From: a virus | Virus genome (UHGV): UHGV-0278151 | Strand: one strand, 5' to 3' | DNA length: 20,723 nt | Part shown: positions 3,703 to 20,723 of the stretch, piece after piece | How the letters are laid out: each line of letters opens with the position of its first letter | Position numbering within the stretch: the first letter of the stretch is position 1 | Notes under the pieces: generated by a model | Database searches by the model: none | The model's input: the letters and a program-made list of their open reading frames with translations, nothing else | Told to the model about the DNA's origin: nothing | Translations under genes and position numbers: made by a program

Positions 3703-4106
3703 TTTCCCGCAGAAACAGGCTCTGCAGGCCCGGCGTCCTCTGTCTGTTCAGGAGCATCATTCACCACAAACTCATACATACCGGACAGCCGGTACACCAC
3801 GTTTTCAGCATGAGAAATTGCCTCCGTGGGCCAGGTGGTAAGCACTTCCTGCTCAATCTGTTTAACGGCTTCATTCATGGAAGGCAGCTTTGTCTTCTTC
3901 GGATGGTTATGCCACAGGGACATCGCCACCAGAAACGCGCCGGTTCTGATGGCGTCTTCCACAGTAAACTTCCGGTTGCTGTCTGACTCCGCCTGTTCTG
4001 CCTGCCGTTTCATCAGGGCGAGATGCTCAATTCGCTGCAGGGCTGACAGTTCAGAAAGCGTGACGGTCACACCGTTATGTTCAAATGATTCGGTTTTCAG
4101 GAACAT
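3684..4106 (-). CDS. G: Tail assembly chaperone G
   Basis: 140-aa ORF MFLKTESFEHNGVTVTLSELSALQRIEHLALMKRQ... matching lambda gpG, with ATG at 4104-4106. It ends ...SAGKCSMVS, with the slippery heptamer six codons before the stop. Confidence 0.93.
   Translation of the reverse strand: MFLKTESFEHNGVTVTLSELSALQRIEHLALMKRQAEQAESDSNRKFTVEDAIRTGAFLVAMSLWHNHPKKTKLPSMNEAVKQIEQEVLTTWPTEAISHAENVVYRLSGMYEFVVNDAPEQTEDAGPAEPVSAGKCSMVS
3702..3708 (-). other. G-T -1 programmed ribosomal frameshift slippery heptamer (G GGA AAG)
   Basis: Plus-strand CTTTCCC at 3702-3708 is GGGAAAG on the coding strand, in the X XXY YYZ register of the G frame. Shifting -1 here gives the T reading frame exactly. Confidence 0.85.
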
Positions 4107-4121
4107 CGCTGACTCCCCGGA

Positions 4122-4862
4122 TTAACTGGCGGTGACGGTGATTTCTGCAACCGCAGCAAGTTCACCATTACCGGATACGACCGGAATGTTGACCTTGCCT
4201 GCAGCAACACCTTTCACGGTGATGGTCATACCACTGACCGACACGGTGGCTTTTGTTTTATCCGCAGACACCGCACGGAAGCTCTTGTCGGTTGCGCCTT
4301 CCGGCTGGAATGCCACGGTCAGCGTGGTGCTCTGCCCTTTCACCACCGAGGTGCTGGCAGGCGTCACAGTCATGCCGGTTGTCGCCGTCACCGTGCTGCG
4401 ATCTTCTGCCATCGACGGACGGCCCACGTTGGTGACTTTCACCGTGCGGGTGATCACTTCCTTCGCCGTCACCGCCTTACCGATACTGCTGACCCAGCCG
4501 CGGAACACATCGACCGTGCCGTTCGGGAAGCGGATTTTATAGGCTCGGGTATCCCCTTCATTAAACCACGCCAGCAGCGCCTGCTGCCCCTGCTCTCCGG
4601 GCATCCACGCCAGCGTGAAGCTGGTATCTCCGGCAGATTTCTGCCCCTGCCCGGTCGCAGTCCAGTCTGCATCTTCATCATCGAGATAGCTGTCGTCATA
4701 GGACTCAGCGGTCAGTTCGCCGGGCGTCAGGTCTTTAACTTTTGCCAGACGCGACCAGTCAACGTCTGAAAGCGGATTCGCATAAGGGTCACCGCTTCCC
4801 TTATAAACCCACAGGGTGGTCCCGGCACCTTTCACCGGCATTACAGGATTTGGTACAGGCAT
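4122..4862 (-). CDS. V: Major tail tube protein V
   Basis: The translation from the internal ATG at 4860-4862 ([36 protein letters not shown]...) matches lambda gpV, including the C-terminal Ig-like region. The track ORF begins 10 codons further upstream. Confidence 0.93.
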
Positions 4863-9396: not shown

Positions 9397-13077
<3,681 letters not shown>

Positions 13078-13103
<26 letters not shown>

Positions 13104-13623
13104 TCAGCAACCCCGGTATCAGTTCATCCAGCGCGGCTGCTTTGTTCATGGCTTTGATGATATCCCGTTTCAGGAAATCAATATGCCGGTTATCCAGCTC
13201 AGGAAAACGTCGCTGCACCGACAGAGGAATACCGTCGAGAATACTGGCAATTTCACCTGCGATCCGCGACAGCACGAAAGTACAGAATGCGGTTTCCACC
13301 ACTTCAGCGGAGTCTCTGGCATTTTTCAGCTCCTGGGCGTCAGCCTGCGCACGTGTAAGTCGATGGCGTTCGTACTCAATAGTCCCAGGCTGGAGATCTG
13401 CCTCGCTGGCCGCCCTGTAATCCTCAACCTCTTTACGGAGTTTTTCATTTTCGATATCAGCTTCCCTCTGCGCATACCACTGAATTGCCATGGCGGTATC
13501 AAATACAGATTCAACGCCCTTACCACCTCCGGAGACGCAAGGGAGTCCCTGAGACTGCCAGCGTTCAATCGTTCGCGGATCCACGTTGAAAATTTCGGCA
13601 AGTTTCTTTTTATTAACCTTCAT
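13078..13623 (-). CDS. Nu1: Terminase small subunit Nu1
   Basis: From ATG at 13621-13623 the translation is [36 protein letters not shown].... The C-terminal two-thirds match lambda Nu1 closely; the N-terminal DNA-binding region is divergent. Confidence 0.9.
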
Positions 13624-13639
13624 GAAACAGTCACACAAC

Positions 13640-13850
13640 AAATACAGAGTCCGACATGAAAGTGTCCGAAAATGACTTTTTCAGGCGTTTTCATGTCGGA
13701 CCTTTTACGGATTCGATATTAGAAAAAACAAATAGTTATGTTCGAGAAGTACCGACATGATTTTCCCCGGAAAATTTTCATAAATAGCGAAAACCCGCGC
13801 GCCTGCCGCCCCGTGGAAGGCCTCCCCACCGGAAGGACCCACACAAATGA
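13640..13850 (-). other. cos region (cosB with three R-like repeats, cosN, cosQ-like flank)
   Basis: The minus strand reads ...GGGTCCTTCCGGTGGGGAGGCCTTCCACG GGGCGGCAGGCG CGCGGGTTTTCGCTATTTATGAAAATTTTCCGG..., closely resembling the lambda genome ends as I recall them (GGGCGGCGACCT CGCGGGTTTTCGCTATTTATGAAAATTTTCCGG). Three copies of a CCGACATGA motif lie between cosN and the Nu1 start at 13651-13659, 13692-13700 (inverted) and 13752-13760. Confidence 0.8.
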
Positions 13851-14228
13851 GAGCGTTTATCATTAACATTTGCAGATAAGATGACGTACATCATTGAAAC
13901 GCCATTCAGCCATATACCGGCAGCATTCGTAGTTGCACTCCGTAACTCTGCGACTAAGGTTAAAAACATGGCCCTCTTTTGCCACCGGCAAATCTTCAAT
14001 GGATTTCCCCTGCCGGTTTTTTATTTTCGTCGATGCATAACATTGCATTTACATCAATAGCGGCTATTGTCATTAGTATGTTGCATCAATGCATGGGTGG
14101 TATTGGCGGTCTTCGCCGGCCGCTTCTGTGTAGCTGCTCCCTGTGACCGGTTTTTTATTTCTCACATTACAGCAACCCCTTAGAGTGAAGGGCTGCTGTA
14201 ATGCCTGTTACTCAGTAACTACCGCACC

Positions 14229-14537
14229 TTACGGTAATTTCATGAAGGCAAATACCGGACAGCCCGGATGACGAGCATCTTCTGTTGCTTCCAGCATTGA
14301 CTCACCAAACCACTCCGTCGTGGCGCGACCGTCAGCTGCTTTGTAGTGGATCAAGTACTGGTTTTCGCCATCCGCATACTGCGCACGGGCTTTAACCTCA
14401 CCCCATTCATCACTGATGCGCATCTCCACCAGTTGAGACAACTCAAACTTAAACGGAGCAGCATCAGCACCAATTACAATCGGTTTGTTTTCTGTTTTTC
14501 CATCATCGTCTCCTGATATCGAAGCCCGTCGCCGCAC
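14229..14537 (-). CDS. Hypothetical late-region protein (about 102 aa); start uncertain
   Basis: ORF between the lysis cassette and cos on the late strand. It has no in-frame ATG near its 5' end (GTG at 14535-14537 without a clear Shine-Dalgarno). A strong AGGAG+ATG lies in the +1 frame about 40 nt inside, next to an A-run. Confidence 0.5.
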   Translation of the reverse strand: MRRRASISGDDDGKTENKPIVIGADAAPFKFELSQLVEMRISDEWGEVKARAQYADGENQYLIHYKAADGRATTEWFGESMLEATEDARHPGCPVFAFMKLP

Positions 14538-14677
14538 CGGGCACTGATCAACATTTGAGTATTCGCGGCGACAGAAAGAATTTATTTTATTGAATAGCCA
14601 CTAACACAGAATTTCATGCTTTCCGGACGCTGGCGCGCCCTTCATTTTTCAGCAAAATATTCCGCTATTACAGATGA

Positions 14678-14860
14678 TCAGTTCTGCAGACACTGCCGAA
14701 CGCCATCGATAAGCTGGCAGACCTGAGAAGCCGTATCGAAAAGCTGGCGCGCCTTATCCAGGCTGACGCATCCCACCAATAAAAAAGGCACCAGTATCGC
14801 TACCAGTGCCCATTTCGCCGCCGTTCGCGGCATTCTGTGTGTCCAGTGTTTTCTGCTCAT
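14678..14860 (-). CDS. Small predicted lipoprotein following the endolysin (possible outer-membrane spanin-like component)
   Basis: From the internal ATG the translation is MSRKHWTHRMPRTAAKWALVAILVPFLLVGCVSLDKARQLFDTASQVCQLIDGVRQCLQN. It has a positively charged N-terminus, a hydrophobic stretch and an LVGC lipobox, leaving a mature peptide of about 30 aa. No overlapping or adjacent inner-membrane spanin-sized ORF is present. Confidence 0.5.
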   Translation of the reverse strand: MSRKHWTHRMPRTAAKWALVAILVPFLLVGCVSLDKARQLFDTASQVCQLIDGVRQCLQN

Positions 14861-14874
14861 AACACACCTGGTTA

Positions 14875-15261
14875 TCAGCGTTTCAACTGAAAGTGAGGCC
14901 CGTCTTTCAGTGTTTTCCAGTCCCCACCCCATTCGATGGCAGTTCCCAGCTCTGCGGCAGCCTGCTTAAATGCCTGCGCGATTTTCTCGTACAGAGGCCA
15001 GTCCCATGACACCTGGCTGCCAATGTAGGCCACAACATCCACCGCATCACCTGTAAGGTGGCGGCTGTTCATGGTCTGGCTTTTCCCTGCCGCTACCAGC
15101 TGTTTCTGGCGATACTTACTGCGCAGACCTTCCGTGATACCAAAATCAACCTCCGTCAGCTCCAGCGCACGGCGAACGACAGCAACCAGCTGTGGTTTGA
15201 CGCCCTCCAGATTTTTTTCACTGCGACGGCTGAATCTGAATTTACCCGGCATCATATTCAC
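14875..15261 (-). CDS. Endolysin, peptidase M15 family (L-alanyl-D-glutamate endopeptidase type)
   Basis: About 128 aa containing NSRHLTGDAVDV and DGPHFQ, which fit the zinc-ligand motifs of M15/VanY-type phage endolysins. It directly follows two membrane-protein genes and overlaps the stop of the upstream one (GTGA/ATG). Confidence 0.8.
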   Translation of the reverse strand: MNMMPGKFRFSRRSEKNLEGVKPQLVAVVRRALELTEVDFGITEGLRSKYRQKQLVAAGKSQTMNSRHLTGDAVDVVAYIGSQVSWDWPLYEKIAQAFKQAAAELGTAIEWGGDWKTLKDGPHFQLKR

Positions 15262-15533
15262 CTCAACAATGGAAAGATTTTTGTGACGTTCCCGCGTGCG
15301 CGTATCACCAGCACGCAGAACAGCAGGTTAAAAAACACTTCCAGCCAGCCCGTTGCTAACGGGCGACCACACAGATAGCTGAGGGGCGCAAAGGCATACA
15401 GCAGCATCAGCAGCCAGGCCAGCCATGACATCAGCGGTTTGTGTCTGGAGTCACGACGACGATAAAAAAAGAGCGTCAGCACGATAACCGTGCATAACGC
15501 CACATTCAGTAATCCGGGAAGGTTACTTAACAT
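15258..15533 (-). CDS. Small multi-pass membrane protein in the lysis cassette (holin or antiholin-like)
   Basis: 91 aa with three hydrophobic segments (LLNVALCTVIVLTLFFY, LMSWLAWLLMLLYAFAPLSYL, WLEVFFNLLFCVLVI). ATG at 15531-15533 overlaps the end of the upstream membrane-protein gene, and the endolysin follows immediately. Confidence 0.6.
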   Translation of the reverse strand: MLSNLPGLLNVALCTVIVLTLFFYRRRDSRHKPLMSWLAWLLMLLYAFAPLSYLCGRPLATGWLEVFFNLLFCVLVIRARGNVTKIFPLLR

Positions 15534-15915
15534 TGCCGCCTCCTCCGCCCCGCAGGCGCGAGAACAGGCCGGACACCAGTGATGCGATATCCTGCTGGTG
15601 GATGAACGACAGAATCTTCACCGACACCACCGCCACCAGCACCGCACACAGTGCATCCGCAGATGTACCGTCATAACCTGTTTTTGATGCAATCCAGGCT
15701 GACAGTACACGCGCCCCCAGTACACCAACAATGAACGACACCAGAAAATGTGCCGCCACACGCCAGGCTGAAATCTTCTGCGGCATCGTTGCCACAAACA
15801 ACGCCCCGGCGAACGCACCAAACACAATCCCGAAATCCGTTCCGGTAAACAGCCCGAATACCGTCGCCCCGCCGAGCGCCGCAGCCGTGCCGGAACCGGA
15901 TAAGGGTTCAGACAT
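15523..15915 (-). CDS. Putative holin (multi-pass membrane protein, first gene of lysis cassette)
   Basis: From ATG at 15913-15915, which has an AGGAG Shine-Dalgarno at 15924-15928, the translation MSEPLSGSGTAAALGGATVFGLFTGTDFGIVFGAFAGALFVATMPQK... has three or four hydrophobic helices and a charged C-terminus. It sits immediately upstream of the endolysin. Confidence 0.6.
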   Translation of the reverse strand: MSEPLSGSGTAAALGGATVFGLFTGTDFGIVFGAFAGALFVATMPQKISAWRVAAHFLVSFIVGVLGARVLSAWIASKTGYDGTSADALCAVLVAVVSVKILSFIHQQDIASLVSGLFSRLRGGGGGNVK

Positions 15916-15931
15916 ACTTTTTCTCCTGTAA

Positions 15932-15955
15932 ATAAAAAAGGGCCACCAACGGCCC
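15932..15955 (-). terminator. Intrinsic terminator (minus strand) between TerB-like module and holin
   Basis: GGGCC-ACCAAC-GGCCC hairpin (15940-15955) followed on the minus strand by TTTTTTAT (15932-15939). Confidence 0.6.
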
Positions 15956-16002
15956 ATAAAAACACCCCATCAAAGGCACCCGCAGATGCCTTTTGTGTGG
16001 TG

Positions 16003-16155
16003 TTATTCAGATTTACGCAGTAAAGGCCGGAGCACGACCAGCGCCATCGCCACCAGCACACCATCTGCCAGCACCGACATCAGCCGTCCGGTGAAATCCA
16101 CCACCACTACCAGAAACAGCAGGATGGCAGCCAGCACAAGGCGCGCACTTTTCAC
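16003..16155 (-). CDS. Small two-helix membrane protein (about 50 aa), translationally coupled to upstream TerB-like gene
   Basis: GTG at 16153-16155 overlaps the TerB-like stop TGA (GTGA). The translation VKSARLVLAAILLFLVVVVDFTGRLMSVLADGVLVAMALVVLRPLLRKSE has two hydrophobic segments and charged ends. It is too short for the ORF track, which listed only ORFs of 60 aa or more. Confidence 0.45.
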   Translation of the reverse strand: MKSARLVLAAILLFLVVVVDFTGRLMSVLADGVLVAMALVVLRPLLRKSE

Positions 16156-16577
16156 AGGTACTGCTCCAGCGGCAACTGCAACGCCTGTGCAATTTTCTTG
16201 AGCTGCACTTCTTCATCAGGACCGATGCCGTCCTGGTCAGCAATATCCAGACACAGACACAGCACGTTAACTGCATCATCAGTACCGGCAACATCAGCCA
16301 GCTGACGAAGGGCTTCGGCATTGGCAGAACGCGGTGACGCTTCATAACGGGCGCGGATATTTGCACTCATTTGTGCAATCTCACCCGAGAACGGCGCAAA
16401 GGCAGGAAGTGCTGCAATGGTTTTCTCCAGCACAGCGATTTCTTTCGCATCACAGGTGCCGTCGGCGAATGCTATGGAATACGCACCCCAGACGGTCGCC
16501 TCCACTGCATCGCGGTTCTCCATCTTCTTCACTTCGGTAATGGCCTTGCGGGTTTTCTTTTTGAAAATACCAAACAT
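16152..16577 (-). CDS. TerB-like (tellurite-resistance TerB / DjlA N-domain family) protein
   Basis: 141 aa, MFGIFKKKTRKAITEVKKMENRDAVEATVWGAYSIAFADGTCDAKEIAVLEKTIAALP...DDAVNVLCLCLDIADQDGIGPDEEVQLKKIAQALQLPLEQYL. It shows the two-fold repeated pattern typical of TerB domains: a hydrophobic helix, an acidic DG motif, then E-rich and LxxIAxxL segments. Shine-Dalgarno AAGGA lies upstream of the ATG. Confidence 0.55.
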   Translation of the reverse strand: MFGIFKKKTRKAITEVKKMENRDAVEATVWGAYSIAFADGTCDAKEIAVLEKTIAALPAFAPFSGEIAQMSANIRARYEASPRSANAEALRQLADVAGTDDAVNVLCLCLDIADQDGIGPDEEVQLKKIAQALQLPLEQYL

Positions 16578-16835
16578 CGTGACTTTTCCTTTTAGTGGGT
16601 GAGCCTGCGCCCGGGGGTGACCAGCCCACAGAGAAAGTCACACTGACCATCCCGTAAGCTCACCCCTGAAAGGCTCTGTGGTTTTTGATGTGCGCCGGGC
16701 GTGGCGCAAAGAAATGAAATAAGACTTACCTGAAATTAAGGTTAATCTGAGGATTTAAACCATTTTTAAAGCTTAGTAATATCAACTCGTCTCCTGAAGG
16801 AGACAGATACTTATGATTCTTCATGGACTTTGTCC

Positions 16836-16867
16836 CGCGGCGTTAATCCGACGGCCGCGCTTTTTTT
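16836..16867 (+). terminator. Intrinsic terminator (plus strand)
   Basis: 6-bp GC stem (CGCGGC at 16836-16841 paired with GCCGCG at 16854-16859) followed by C and TTTTTTT (16861-16867). Confidence 0.55.
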
Positions 16868-16902
16868 GCGCCATATTCATCGCTAACTTACATGGCATTG
16901 CC

Positions 16903-16937
16903 ACACGGGCATTATCAGTGTCCGTGTTTCTTTTTTT
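16903..16937 (+). terminator. Second intrinsic terminator (plus strand)
   Basis: ACACGGGC...GTCCGTGT hairpin (16903-16927) followed by TTCTTTTTTT. Confidence 0.5.
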
Positions 16938-16958
16938 AGGATTCAGAATAAAAAAAAC

Positions 16959-16985
16959 CGCCCGGTGGAGGCGGTAAAGGATGTA
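16959..16985 (-). terminator. Intrinsic terminator (minus strand)
   Basis: ACCGCC-CGGTGGA-GGCGGT hairpin followed on the minus strand by a run of 8 T (plus-strand A-run at 16959-16967). Confidence 0.6.
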
Positions 16986-17242
16986 TTTCCAGGTTTTGCT
17001 TAATATATGAATAATCTCAATGTCATGGTGTTATTTACAACACCAGAATGATGCATCACCGACCCTGCCAGGAAATATAAAATCTCCGCCGAAAATGCAC
17101 CATTCTGCTGCCGTAAAAAAATCAGCACTGCGGCTACACCCGACCCCAAATCATAGCCAGAGAACAGAATGTTTTTAACAATCTACCCCCACGTAATAAA
17201 AAAATACGTCAGTGCCGTCACTATAAGGCGTATTTCAAATGT

Positions 17243-17312
<70 letters not shown>

Positions 17313-17446
17313 TGACGGTTTTATTGCCACATCCGTAACAACAGTCGACAGGAATAATATACATTCAGAATCAGCCGCCTTAGCTAATTGTGCAACCATC
17401 TGCTCTTTGCAAGTGCACTTAACGTCCTGCGCCACTTTTCAGGCAT

Positions 17447-17469
17447 AAAAAAACCCGCTCAGTGGCGGG
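17447..17469 (-). terminator. Strong intrinsic terminator (minus strand)
   Basis: CCCGC-CACTGA-GCGGG hairpin followed by TTTTTTT on the minus strand. It is near-identical to the element at 18171-18195. Confidence 0.7.
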
Positions 17470-17600
17470 ATCTTTTGATAAAAACGACAAAGGCACCATT
17501 AAGGTGCCTTTTACACAGGGGCAGCAGGCTTGTCATCACCTCATCGCTACTCCTGGCTTCCTGTTCGGAAGTCTCACAAGTCCCATCAGGGTACAGCGAC

Positions 17601-17640: not shown

Positions 17641-17673
17641 ATCGAATTCGATAATCGTTTTCGATTATCGATA
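17641..17673. repeat. Tandem dyad-symmetric sites ATCG-N4-CGAT (x2) plus TATCGATA
   Basis: ATCGAATTCGAT (17641-17652, perfect 12-bp palindrome), ATCGTTTTCGAT (17654-17665) and TATCGATA (17666-17673). They overlap the stop codon of the PemK/MazF-like gene and lie 12 bp upstream of the -35 at 17624-17629. Confidence 0.7.
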
Positions 17674-18066
17674 CAGATAAGCCATCCCTATCCCGTGCAA
17701 TACCGCCCGTTTAATATTCTCAAACTCATCTTCCGCAATCATAGGAACAATATAATTTCGTCCCTCCCAGGTTCTGGTTTTTATGCGATCCAGTCGGCTC
17801 AATGAAACCGTCATCAACATGTCACATTTTACCCAGCAAGTAATATGCTCATTACCAGGTATGGGGTTTTCTGATAACTCATGATGGCAATCTCTGCGAG
17901 GGAGCGGTTCAGTAGTGCTTATTGGTACCACTGTTACCAATTGATTGTTGTGCCTGTTTCTGGACACGACCACCACTGGCCTGACCTTGACTATTTCCGG
18001 AACAACCATTCCCCGAAAATCACACATTAAAACAGAACGAACAGACGGCTGATACTTTAATACCAT
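17665..18066 (-). CDS. PemK/MazF-family-like protein (candidate endoribonuclease toxin), no adjacent antitoxin ORF evident
   Basis: From ATG at 18064-18066 the translation is MVLKYQPSVRSVLMCDFRGMVVPEIVKVRPVVVVSRNRHNNQLVTVVPISTTEPLP...ITCWVKCDMLMTVSLSRL...EDEFENIKRAVLHGIGM. This aligns by motif with Kid/PemK and MazF/EndoA (GDIxxVDF-like strand, VRPxxVV, N..., VxVVPITS, hhxCDQhxTIDxxRL, C-terminal helix). Confidence 0.55.
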   Translation of the reverse strand: MVLKYQPSVRSVLMCDFRGMVVPEIVKVRPVVVVSRNRHNNQLVTVVPISTTEPLPRRDCHHELSENPIPGNEHITCWVKCDMLMTVSLSRLDRIKTRTWEGRNYIVPMIAEDEFENIKRAVLHGIGMAYLYR

Positions 18067-19317: not shown

Positions 19318-20364
19318 TTACCCGAGCACGCCGGTTGCAAAGGCGCGATCAAGAAAACGAAAAATTAAATCAATCTGGGAACCATGCTTTTCTTCGAACG
19401 CCAGCGGATCCGCATGAAGCTCGTTGTGATGCTCCCGACACAGCGGTAGCGTGAAAATATCGTGGGATTTTGTCCCTATTCCGCCCTGACCATGACCAAT
19501 CAGGTGATGGGGATCGTCGGCTGGCTTACCACAACACGCACACGGCTGTGTCTTTACCCAGCGCGTATATTTCTCATTTACCCAACGGCGACGTTTAGGT
19601 CGCTTCATGAAAGATTCCGGAGACTCCGGATCAACAGCAATGCTGACCACCGTCTTTTCCTGTGGTGGGTTTTGCTGGTGGGCGTGAGGCAGCGGCGCAA
19701 GATTTTTTGTGCGCTGCTTCAGTATGCTGATGGCGGTCTGCTCTCCCGGTACGATGTCGCTTTCGCGGTACACCGAGCGAATTTTTTCCGCACGTAACCC
19801 CAGAGAACGACGTAATACTACCTCCGGTAGTGCGTCCGCCACCTGATTGCAGACAGCCCACCAGGATAATTCAGCCAGCGATAATTCCCGCTCCTGTGTG
19901 CCATTCATTGCATGGCGCATGACGTCAATCATCCATGCTGACAGGTTTTGGTGAGCAAGTTGCTCAAGTGATTCGGAGGACTGGTCACGCAACTGGTTGT
20001 CACAGTGCCAGCACAACACCATCGCGCCAGCACCGTAACGATGTATGACGGTTTCGCTGTGATGGTAATCACCATGAGGCCACTGGCAGGATTTAATATG
20101 GCGCAACAGCCAGTCAGACAATGCACCAGCACCACCAGCAGCACGAATTACCCGTGCGTTACTGAAAAACGGCAGCAATGTTTTGTCTTCCACCAGCGGC
20201 TGGCGAGCGGCAGGAACGACCCCGGACGGCAGATTACGCATGCTTTTCGGTTCCGGCTCCACCAGTACCCGGGTATTGTGGAATACCGGCATGGATTCAC
20301 GGCCCGGCTTAACGACCACCAGCCCAAGTTCCGGTACCAGAACAGGTCGAAGTAATACCCGCAC
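19318..20364 (-). CDS. DUF968 / NinG-like nin-region protein with C-terminal Cys/His (HNH-like) motif
   Basis: About 348 aa (GTG start; an internal ATG is possible). The C-terminus reads RPKRRRWVNEKYTRWVKTQPCACCGKPADDPHHLIGHGQGG...LCREHHNELH, which resembles the lambda NinG/Rap-type Cys/His region. Confidence 0.7.
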   Translation of the reverse strand: MRVLLRPVLVPELGLVVVKPGRESMPVFHNTRVLVEPEPKSMRNLPSGVVPAARQPLVEDKTLLPFFSNARVIRAAGGAGALSDWLLRHIKSCQWPHGDYHHSETVIHRYGAGAMVLCWHCDNQLRDQSSESLEQLAHQNLSAWMIDVMRHAMNGTQERELSLAELSWWAVCNQVADALPEVVLRRSLGLRAEKIRSVYRESDIVPGEQTAISILKQRTKNLAPLPHAHQQNPPQEKTVVSIAVDPESPESFMKRPKRRRWVNEKYTRWVKTQPCACCGKPADDPHHLIGHGQGGIGTKSHDIFTLPLCREHHNELHADPLAFEEKHGSQIDLIFRFLDRAFATGVLG

Positions 20365-20365
20365 G

Positions 20366-20723
20366 TTACCTCCAGATGCGTTGCTGGAATGTACGGGACG
20401 GACGCGGTGGGCGTTCGGAGTAAGGCAATCTGACTGAGATTATCCAGTGACGGTAGTCGAGACTAAGGGCTTTCTTAACCTCGTATCCGGAGCTTAAGTT
20501 GCACGCCATTGGGTGGGTTAAGCATAAATGTAGGTCGTTGTCGATAACTTCTTTTTTTGCCCAGCGATGGATGCTGCCGTCAATGTTTCCGGCATCCACA
20601 TCACCAGGCCAGAGAGCGTAGGCCAGTTCGTCATCCAGTGTTTTCCATGTCTGCTTGTATTCGCGATGAATGGCAGCAATGACCGGGCTGATTTTTCCTG
20701 TTGAATTTTCAGTGTACTGTTGA
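20366..20723 (-). CDS. Hypothetical nin-region protein, partial (N-terminus beyond right edge of window)
   Basis: The open frame runs without stops from the window edge to TAA at 20366-20368 (...WKTLDDELAYALWPGDVDAGNIDGSIHRWAKKEVIDNDLHLCLTHPMA...QQRIWR). It is on the same strand and in the same operon-like spacing as the downstream nin genes. Confidence 0.55.
   Translation of the reverse strand, partial: QQYTENSTGKISPVIAAIHREYKQTWKTLDDELAYALWPGDVDAGNIDGSIHRWAKKEVIDNDLHLCLTHPMACNLSSGYEVKKALSLDYRHWIISVRLPYSERPPRPSRTFQQRIWR

Follow-up and report, generated by a model that had tools for sequence, protein, structure and literature searches.

The lysis cassette of UHGV-0278151

The virus genome UHGV-0278151 was analysed as a single DNA stretch of 20,723 nucleotides (nt), hereafter called the window, and carries at positions 14,678 to 15,915 a lysis cassette that ends in a gene for a 60-residue lipoprotein, the subject of this report. 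The window is 100% identical to the SE11 prophage of E. coli (NC_011415.1), which is inserted between ydfJ and rspB, and the closest phage is the Stx2e phage phiP27 (92.8% identity). Head and tail genes, described as lambda-like in an earlier note made from the sequence alone, showed 97% identity to lambda-type phages and were 99% identical to those of phages Kati, PhiR34_1 and phiSTEC1575-Stx2k. The lysis genes lie downstream of Q on the minus strand, as do all other features of the window described below. The earlier note had also proposed that the cassette is not of the S-R-Rz/Rz1 type. This was borne out: all four open reading frames (ORFs) were present, and family matches were obtained for the holins and the M15 endolysin.

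The lipoprotein precursor is encoded at 14678..14860. It belongs to phrog_7528, a family of unknown function (E 3e-37), and is 'hypothetical' in RefSeq. A Shine-Dalgarno-like AGGTG, read from the sequence, is located at 14865..14869, 4 nt 5' of the ATG and within the 14-nt gap past the endolysin stop codon. The signal peptide (residues 1-30, 14771..14860) is composed of a basic 17-residue n-region, MSRKHWTHRMPRTAAKW, and a 13-residue hydrophobic core. A rule-based test placed the expected lipobox, L-V-G-C, at Cys31, the predicted lipidation site (codon 14768..14770), and by the same kind of rule the inner-membrane retention signal is missing, the +2 residue being Val and not Asp. The mature lipopeptide of 30 residues (14681..14770), CVSLDKARQLFDTASQVCQLIDGVRQCLQN, contains the conserved Cys48 and Cys57; it is hydrophilic, proline-free, without net charge (0), strongly amphipathic (hydrophobic moment muH 0.55) and predicted to be helical. 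The C-terminal sequence, QVCQLIDGVRQCLQN, is hydrophilic; the only helix detected by a hydropathy scan was that of the signal peptide, in agreement with the reported lack of a C-terminal membrane helix. No match was found with Pfam-A by hmmscan (E up to 10), NCBIfam or PADLOC, and a profile search of PDB gave only noise.

The remaining genes of the cassette are more familiar. The first holin-like membrane protein (15523..15915; 130 residues, 3-4 membrane helices) matched Pfam PF16931 Phage_holin_8 (E 6e-24) and the holin family phrog_198 (E 3e-42), and the second (15258..15533; 91 residues, 3 membrane helices) matched Pfam PF05449 Phage_holin_3_7 (E 6e-22) and the holin family phrog_217 (E 1.5e-38); the two genes overlap by 11 nt. 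A Phage_holin_8 gene was present upstream of the lipoprotein gene in nearly all related loci, and Phage_holin_3_7 homologues in mEp390 and HK639 stand before a lysozyme and a genuine two-component spanin. The endolysin, an M15 L-Ala-D-Glu endopeptidase (14875..15261; Peptidase_M15_4, E 1.6e-12; endolysin family phrog_465, E 3e-75), has 128 residues if read from a GTG; RefSeq starts it at the ATG at 15252 (125 residues). Serratia ChiX is its closest solved structure (5opz, E 1.5e-43), and the T5 endolysin was also detected (2mxz, E 3e-23). Its zinc motifs SRHLTGDAVD and PHFQ are intact, and a signal or signal-arrest-release sequence is absent.

Conservation and genomic position of the lipoprotein gene

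Homologues of the lipoprotein were found by protein search in 158 clusters, all from Enterobacterales (Escherichia, Salmonella, Citrobacter, Cronobacter and Yersinia). Among 120 listed sequences, 117 had a lipobox, which had the form L[VA]GC in 110, and the mature part was exactly 30 residues long in 97. Cys18 and Cys27 of the mature peptide (Cys48 and Cys57 of the precursor) were nearly invariant in the family, and the net charge of the mature peptide ranged from -2 to +3. Every copy recovered by protein search (85 of 85, representing 51 distinct DNA sequences) was intact, and the ratio of nonsynonymous to synonymous substitution rates (dN/dS) in the 51 sequences was 0.16 over the whole gene, with values of 0.13 in the mature part and 0.17 in the n-region. 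Judged by these rates, the gene is real and under purifying selection. It was present in 314 of 5,426 complete E. coli genomes (~6%), with 491 copies, including enterotoxigenic E. coli H10407, and its carriers include Stx2e, Stx2k and LT-II toxin-converting prophages. The family is nevertheless small, as only 21 clusters were returned when 1.8 billion representative proteins were searched with a profile; the clearly diverged mature parts among these keep the core LVPFLLVGC and the pattern EKAR-W[FL]G-AA[DE]VC...K...C.

Throughout the family, the n-region (residues 1-17, 14810-14860) is both unusually basic and, at 12-17 residues, unusually long; close relatives share a near-invariant xRKHWTHRxPR. 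Its length, basicity and conservation are not accounted for by the needs of ordinary lipoprotein export. These properties of the n-region and the hydrophobic core suggest a signal peptide that is important in its own right.

Several intact or matching copies have escaped annotation. An intact 60-residue gene is not annotated in phage vB_Apl-pPE4 (L004, 2501-2680) or in the STEC384 chromosome (L104, 3001-3183), where RefSeq places a different 42-residue ORF over it. In several further E. coli RefSeq chromosomes (hits H41, H47, H50, H63 and H64), the position of the match is without any annotated feature. The first of these phages is deposited as PP818812.1, 'Actinobacillus phage vB_Apl-pPE4', with Actinobacillus pleuropneumoniae as the recorded host. 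Its DNA is 91.5% identical to the lysis region of the window (79% of a 2-kb query aligned), and the host attribution looks doubtful.

We analyzed gene order in IMG/VR loci, 80 of which were retrieved by protein and 117 by DNA pattern, corresponding to about 136 distinct loci. In all of them the lipoprotein gene closed the holin-endolysin cluster, co-directional with it and located downstream of holin_8, holin_3_7 and an endolysin. It directly followed an M15 endolysin gene in 69 loci; in 20 others a 57-residue tail-anchored membrane protein was encoded next to the M15 endolysin. The upstream genes were those for an endolysin of the GH108 + PG_binding_3 type and the 57-residue protein in 30 loci, and for GH108 alone in 6; the endolysin type was not determined in 11. 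In about half of the loci the lipoprotein gene starts 14 nt past the M15 stop codon, and in L081 and L102 its start overlaps the GH108 stop codon (ATGA). Variable inserts (KilA-N, an HNH endonuclease, a reverse gene in phiP27) occur between endolysin and lipoprotein. The same mature peptide was found with M15 or GH108 endolysins, whether or not the small membrane protein was also present, and thus no phage-encoded partner co-varies with it.

The arrangement extends to sequenced phages (phiP27, phiSTEC1575-Stx2k and vB_Apl-pPE4), which are likewise spanin-less, and to distant homologues. These follow holin_3_1 and GH108 in L088 and holin_3_1 and M15 in L097 and L100, with gaps of 3 and 0 nt, respectively. 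In L102, a Mu-like phage (GemA, Mor, Mu portal), the order is holin_8, holin_3_7, GH108 and lipoprotein. In L099, and in L090, which represents another phage background, endolysin and lipoprotein are followed by a gp53-like soluble protein. The gene is therefore co-oriented and contiguous with holin and endolysin genes across unrelated phage backgrounds, as expected of a member of a lysis cassette.

Comparison with sister cassettes indicated what normally occupies this position. In P88, an M15 endolysin gene with ~80% DNA identity is followed by a DUF2570 inner-membrane spanin subunit (i-spanin) and an overlapped outer-membrane subunit (o-spanin). In mEp390 and HK639, the order is holin_8, holin_3_7, lysozyme, a 91-residue i-spanin, an overlapped 75-residue o-spanin and the gp53-like gene. 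When these two are set against L090 and L099, the gene order indicates that the lipoprotein replaces exactly the spanin pair. PhiR34_1 and Kati, whose structural module is 99% identical to that of the window, yet have S-R-Rz(/Rz1) before Nu1 at the same mosaic position. By synteny, then, the lipoprotein occupies the slot held by two-component spanins in sister cassettes.

The earlier note had found no inner-membrane spanin ORF overlapping or adjoining the lipoprotein gene, and neither did we, whether by reading ORFs, by a scripted detector or from RefSeq annotation. Among minus-strand ORFs of at least 25 residues in 13000-17500, none combined an N-terminal membrane helix with a periplasmic domain. 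A scripted Rz/Rz1 detector reported only antisense artefacts in the window and recovered the embedded Rz/Rz1 of Stx phage GER2 used as a control; it missed the overlapped pair of P88, so that its negative result is not exhaustive, and it was supplemented by tblastn searches with five different i-spanins and by inspection of the ORFs beside the gene. RefSeq annotates no spanin in the whole SE11 prophage from ydfJ to rspB, and no cognate i-spanin was found within 6 kb in about 200 loci. With 30 mature residues and no partner, the lipoprotein falls short of the length by which a two-component spanin bridges the periplasm.

Two other candidates for a partner were rejected. One, a 37-residue ORF in an alternate frame within the lipoprotein gene (phiP27 L32), lacks a membrane helix, and it is the lipoprotein frame that is under selection. 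The small membrane proteins of 57/60 and 44 residues are found neither in the window nor in most loci, and one of them also precedes a full Rz/Rz1.

The small membrane proteins were seen in two settings. A protein of 50-60 residues with a C-terminal membrane helix (...AAFAIRLVAVAVLIWAVRWW; L003, 2326-2499; L005, 1630-1782; many IMG/VR loci) is encoded directly upstream of Rz in GER2 and directly upstream of the lipoprotein in ~40% of the lipoprotein loci. Some loci contain an additional 44-residue membrane protein (MSDSIIKLARILCVVV...). Neither the 50-60-residue nor the 44-residue proteins had a family match.

One member of the family has been described as a spanin subunit. Kongari et al. (2018; PMC6139136) listed for phiP27 a 'separated' two-component spanin, consisting of an i-spanin of 64 residues (20348..20542) and an o-spanin of 51 residues (20706..20861), both singletons; the combined periplasmic length of 62 residues was the shortest among the 528 two-component systems surveyed. 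This 'o-spanin' is a 90% identical homologue of the window lipoprotein. The 64-residue ORF was tried as an i-spanin and rejected: it begins with TTG and lies inside a 477-bp insertion that separates endolysin from lipoprotein in phiP27 and is lacking in the window and in most relatives. In the phiP27 locus (L001) it runs at 3877-4071 (+), antisense to a 90-residue gene at 3861-4133 (-); this reverse gene matches phrog_36812 (E 5e-20), and the 64-residue ORF matches no family. Among the loci retrieved, the ORF was seen only in phiP27 itself, L065 and L084, all of which have the phiP27-type insertion, and in L035 the reverse gene is kept at 46% identity while the 'i-spanin' frame is shortened to 36 residues. 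Since it lies in a phiP27-specific insertion and is antisense to a conserved gene, the 64-residue i-spanin is most likely spurious, a mis-call. In addition, judged from the homologues, the published start of the 51-residue protein is wrong for the family, the conserved start being 9 codons upstream: position 10 may be Met, Thr, Ile, Val or Ala, whereas residues 1-9 show conservation and purifying selection. What has been quoted as the shortest known spanin, the phiP27 pair, should therefore be reclassified as an orphan lipoprotein, which corrects the published call.

The fate of the gene beside genuine spanins is also informative. In loci whose cassette includes a canonical two-component spanin upstream of the lipoprotein gene, that gene was never found intact and full-length. 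The gene has three in-frame stops in GER2, L150 and L155, has lost its 3' half in E. coli EC12, L193 and L151, and is 5'-truncated to 47 residues behind a lambda-like Rz/Rz1 in L177; these represent three independent events. In the pattern-derived sample of spanin-free loci, on the other hand, ~69 of 72 lipoprotein genes were intact. This pattern fits redundancy with spanins and, as far as gene integrity can tell, speaks against a moron with a function of its own. Megablast of the GER2 pseudogene against the phage collection matched GER2 alone.

With regard to transcription, no sigma-70-like promoter was found on the lipoprotein strand in 13600-17150, and there is no space for a separate promoter before the lipoprotein gene, suggesting that the gene is read with the late operon. 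A sequence scan detected a terminator-like RNA hairpin inside the signal-peptide coding region (14776..14811), with an 11-bp stem and a GCGA loop followed by UUUUUUAUU. Its folding energy was -24.1 kcal/mol by RNAfold (z -3.1). Compensatory changes retain it in the distant homologues L088, L099 and L100, and it is missing in L097 and L102; synonymous divergence (dS) at the hairpin was 0.10, versus 0.23-0.24 in the flanks. The internal hairpin might restrict lipoprotein expression to Q-antiterminated late transcription. A second terminator-like hairpin with a T-run was found by the same scan at 15940..15955, 25 nt upstream of the first holin start.

Genes around the cassette were also recorded. 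The interval from Q to the holins (16003-16577 and 17665-18066) contains a PemK/MazF-family toxin gene, a TerB-family gene and a gene for a 50-residue DUF3927 (TciB-like) membrane protein; these are moron-like and lie within the late transcription unit. An antitoxin partner of the MazF-like gene was not among the annotated neighbours (annotation only was consulted). A soluble 102-residue ORF at 14229-14537 (phrog_1935, E 3e-54), for which the RefSeq version has only 64 residues, is found downstream of the lipoprotein in many loci. Genes for LT-II heat-labile enterotoxin are located inside or just after such lysis cassettes (L050, 2770-3915; L054; L093; L086), and in L050 and L054 they stand between holin_3_7 and the M15 endolysin. 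Release of these toxins would thus depend on an unusual lysis system.

Possible function of the lipoprotein

We consider it probable, on comparative grounds, that the 60-residue lipoprotein serves as a stand-alone outer-membrane step of lysis, without an inner-membrane spanin subunit; its lipidation, outer-membrane location, lytic role and physical mechanism are what we infer. The earlier note had offered two alternatives, an unusual minimal component that disrupts the outer membrane or an incomplete cassette. The former is supported by the spanin slot and by decay beside spanins. The latter found no support in about 136 loci, 314 E. coli genomes, the sequenced phages and a dN/dS of 0.16.

A possible course of events is as follows. 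The lipoprotein gene would be transcribed with the late operon, directly after the endolysin gene. The precursor would be exported, lipidated at Cys31 and, with Val or Ala at +2, passed by the Lol pathway to the outer membrane, in whose inner leaflet the neutral, strongly amphipathic, helical lipopeptide of 30 residues would wait. As in Rz and Rz1, disulfides are probably formed by its conserved cysteines, and a continuous helix would favour intermolecular links. Once the holin or holins had released the M15 or GH108 endolysin and the murein had been destroyed, the lipopeptide would break the final barrier. It may do so by direct destabilisation of the outer membrane. Alternatively, turgor might press the inner onto the outer membrane, and the free amphipathic end could insert into the inner membrane and cause fusion, in the manner of an anchorless minimal unimolecular spanin.

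Several points weigh against this proposal. A 30-residue peptide is too short to span the periplasm, so the known spanin mechanism is not applicable, and no control is evident by which a self-sufficient membrane disruptor would be kept inactive until the holin triggers. Spanins are dispensable when cultures are shaken in media low in divalent cations, and the isolation of phages with such a cassette is therefore no proof of outer-membrane disruption. The lipoprotein showed no similarity in sequence or structure to characterised lytic proteins. The AlphaFold2 model of the precursor (39-sequence alignment), a single continuous helix, has low confidence (pLDDT 69) and is too weak for intra- or inter-chain pairing of the two cysteines to be read from it. 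Disrupted copies also occur in spanin-free cassettes (L158, L159 and L169), and the decay pattern, with three events only, could partly reflect recombination scars. In the full-text literature, experimental work on the lipoprotein or its homologues was not found, the sole record being the 2018 catalogue entry (PMC6139136).

The protein could instead be an accessory late lipoprotein that does not disrupt the outer membrane, such as a lysis-timing regulator, a Llp- or Cor-like protein for receptor blocking or superinfection exclusion, or a Bor-like moron. Small phage lipoproteins with such roles are found near lysis genes, with Bor just downstream in L046 and PhiR34_1, and morons (LT-II toxin genes, KilA-N, HNH) are often inserted in the same region. 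The missing homology to lytic proteins would also be expected, and the holin_8/3_7 cassettes of Rac-SA53 and SerU-LTIIb, which have a GH108 endolysin, lack both the lipoprotein and a spanin. We nevertheless regard an accessory role as unlikely. The gene, which lacks its own promoter, is on the late-operon strand and lies 0-14 nt from the endolysin gene or overlaps it. It accompanies the lysis genes in phages with virion modules of the lambda-like, phiP27-like and Mu-like kinds and is thus not tied to a receptor or tail type. Decay beside a canonical spanin would be unexpected for an independent moron, and PADLOC gave no match.

Another explanation, which appears quite improbable, is a true o-spanin whose inner-membrane partner has gone unrecognised, be it a holin-like protein, a small tail-anchored protein, a host protein or the 64-residue ORF of phiP27. 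The lipobox, the outer-membrane sorting signal and the spanin slot are those of an o-spanin, the phiP27 homologue is catalogued as the o-spanin of a 'separated' pair, and it has been suggested that type I or tail-anchored proteins might serve as i-spanins (PMC6139136); a membrane protein of 57/60 and sometimes 44 residues is indeed encoded directly upstream in many loci. However, these small proteins expose hardly any residues to the periplasm and are missing from more than half of the loci, the window included, in GER2 one is found upstream of a complete Rz/Rz1, and the 64-residue i-spanin was rejected by comparison. The holins vary in family (holin_8 and 3_7 versus holin_3_1), and the holin_8/3_7 pairs of mEp390 and HK639 operate with ordinary spanins. 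Moreover, identical mature peptides stand beside different neighbours, and a helix of 30 residues (~4.5 nm) with a loop is too short to bridge the periplasm.

Finally, that the cassette is defective, with spanin genes lost from a decaying prophage and the lipoprotein a leftover, is very hard to credit: the SE11 prophage does have several pseudogenes in its tail-fibre and early regions, and spanin loss is tolerated in the laboratory, but the same spanin-less layout is shared by hundreds of loci and by sequenced phage genomes, dN/dS is 0.16, ~95% of copies are intact and distant homologues share the arrangement.

Relation to known lysis systems

Of the steps of phage lysis, disruption of the outer membrane is the one least understood. 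A spanin cannot be recognised in about 13% of the phages that infect Gram-negative hosts (PMC6139136). That the lipoprotein exists was already known, as it was catalogued in 2018 as half of a two-component spanin. What is new here is that there is no i-spanin, that a conserved family is fixed behind diverse endolysins, and that it alternates with spanins. Whether a lipopeptide can stand in for a spanin is directly testable, as the cassette is common, the host is genetically easy and a complementation assay with lambda Rz/Rz1 is established. If the proposed stand-alone role is correct, the lipopeptide would provide a minimal model of membrane disruption or fusion from the periplasmic side, would bear on toxin release from the carrier prophages and might be a building block for engineered lysis systems. 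To our knowledge, disruptin is the only characterised alternative to spanins.

Among known systems, o-spanins such as lambda Rz1 share with the lipoprotein a small size, a lipobox, an outer-membrane sorting signal, one or more conserved periplasmic cysteines and a position at the end of the lysis cassette. However, Rz1 is proline-rich and unstructured, whereas the mature part of the lipoprotein has 30 residues, is predicted to be helical and lacks proline. In addition, o-spanins have a cognate i-spanin, and the window lipoprotein has none that is embedded, overlapping or adjacent. The unimolecular spanin, T1 gp11, likewise fills the spanin slot with one gene, whose product has an N-terminal lipobox and the signal of an outer-membrane lipoprotein; unlike the lipoprotein, T1 gp11 is anchored in the inner membrane by a C-terminal membrane helix. 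The periplasmic domain of T1 gp11 is also much longer than 30 residues.

Small lytic lipoproteins of enterobacteria are similar in size. Colicin lysis or bacteriocin release proteins and entericidin B have precursors of ~45-60 residues and mature lipopeptides of ~28-30 residues. These lipopeptides permeabilise the envelope by themselves, those of the colicin lysis and bacteriocin release type through OMPLA-dependent quasi-lysis, and the signal peptide of release proteins is stable and functional, of which the conserved signal peptide of the lipoprotein is reminiscent. Their genes are found in colicin or stress operons, whereas that of the lipoprotein lies in a phage late operon past the endolysin gene. 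Pfam hmmscan (E up to 10) gave no family match, and hence none to the colicin-lysis or entericidin families (Lysis_col and Entericidin).

The ChiWXYZ cassettes of type 10 secretion (PMC10847048) are related through the endolysin, which is a close relative of ChiX, and some members of the lipoprotein family occur with a lambda-S-type holin like ChiW. These cassettes finish with a normal pair of the Rz/Rz1 type, ChiY/ChiZ (PMC10847048), in contrast to the single 60-residue lipoprotein here. Disruptin (phiKT gp28, bioRxiv 10.1101/515445) is similar in being a small amphipathic helical protein in a spanin-less cassette that is proposed to act alone on the outer membrane. However, it is cationic, resembles antimicrobial peptides and is unlipidated, with no signal peptide, whereas the lipoprotein has a net charge of about 0, a signal peptide, a predicted lipid anchor and two conserved cysteines; the two have no sequence similarity. 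We tentatively suggest that the family may represent a further class of outer-membrane disruptor beside two-component spanins, unimolecular spanins and disruptin, namely a single disulfide-bearing, lipid-anchored amphipathic peptide of 30 residues that would complete the lysis of enterobacterial hosts without an inner-membrane subunit, perhaps with a functional, unusually basic and conserved signal peptide and hairpin-limited expression.

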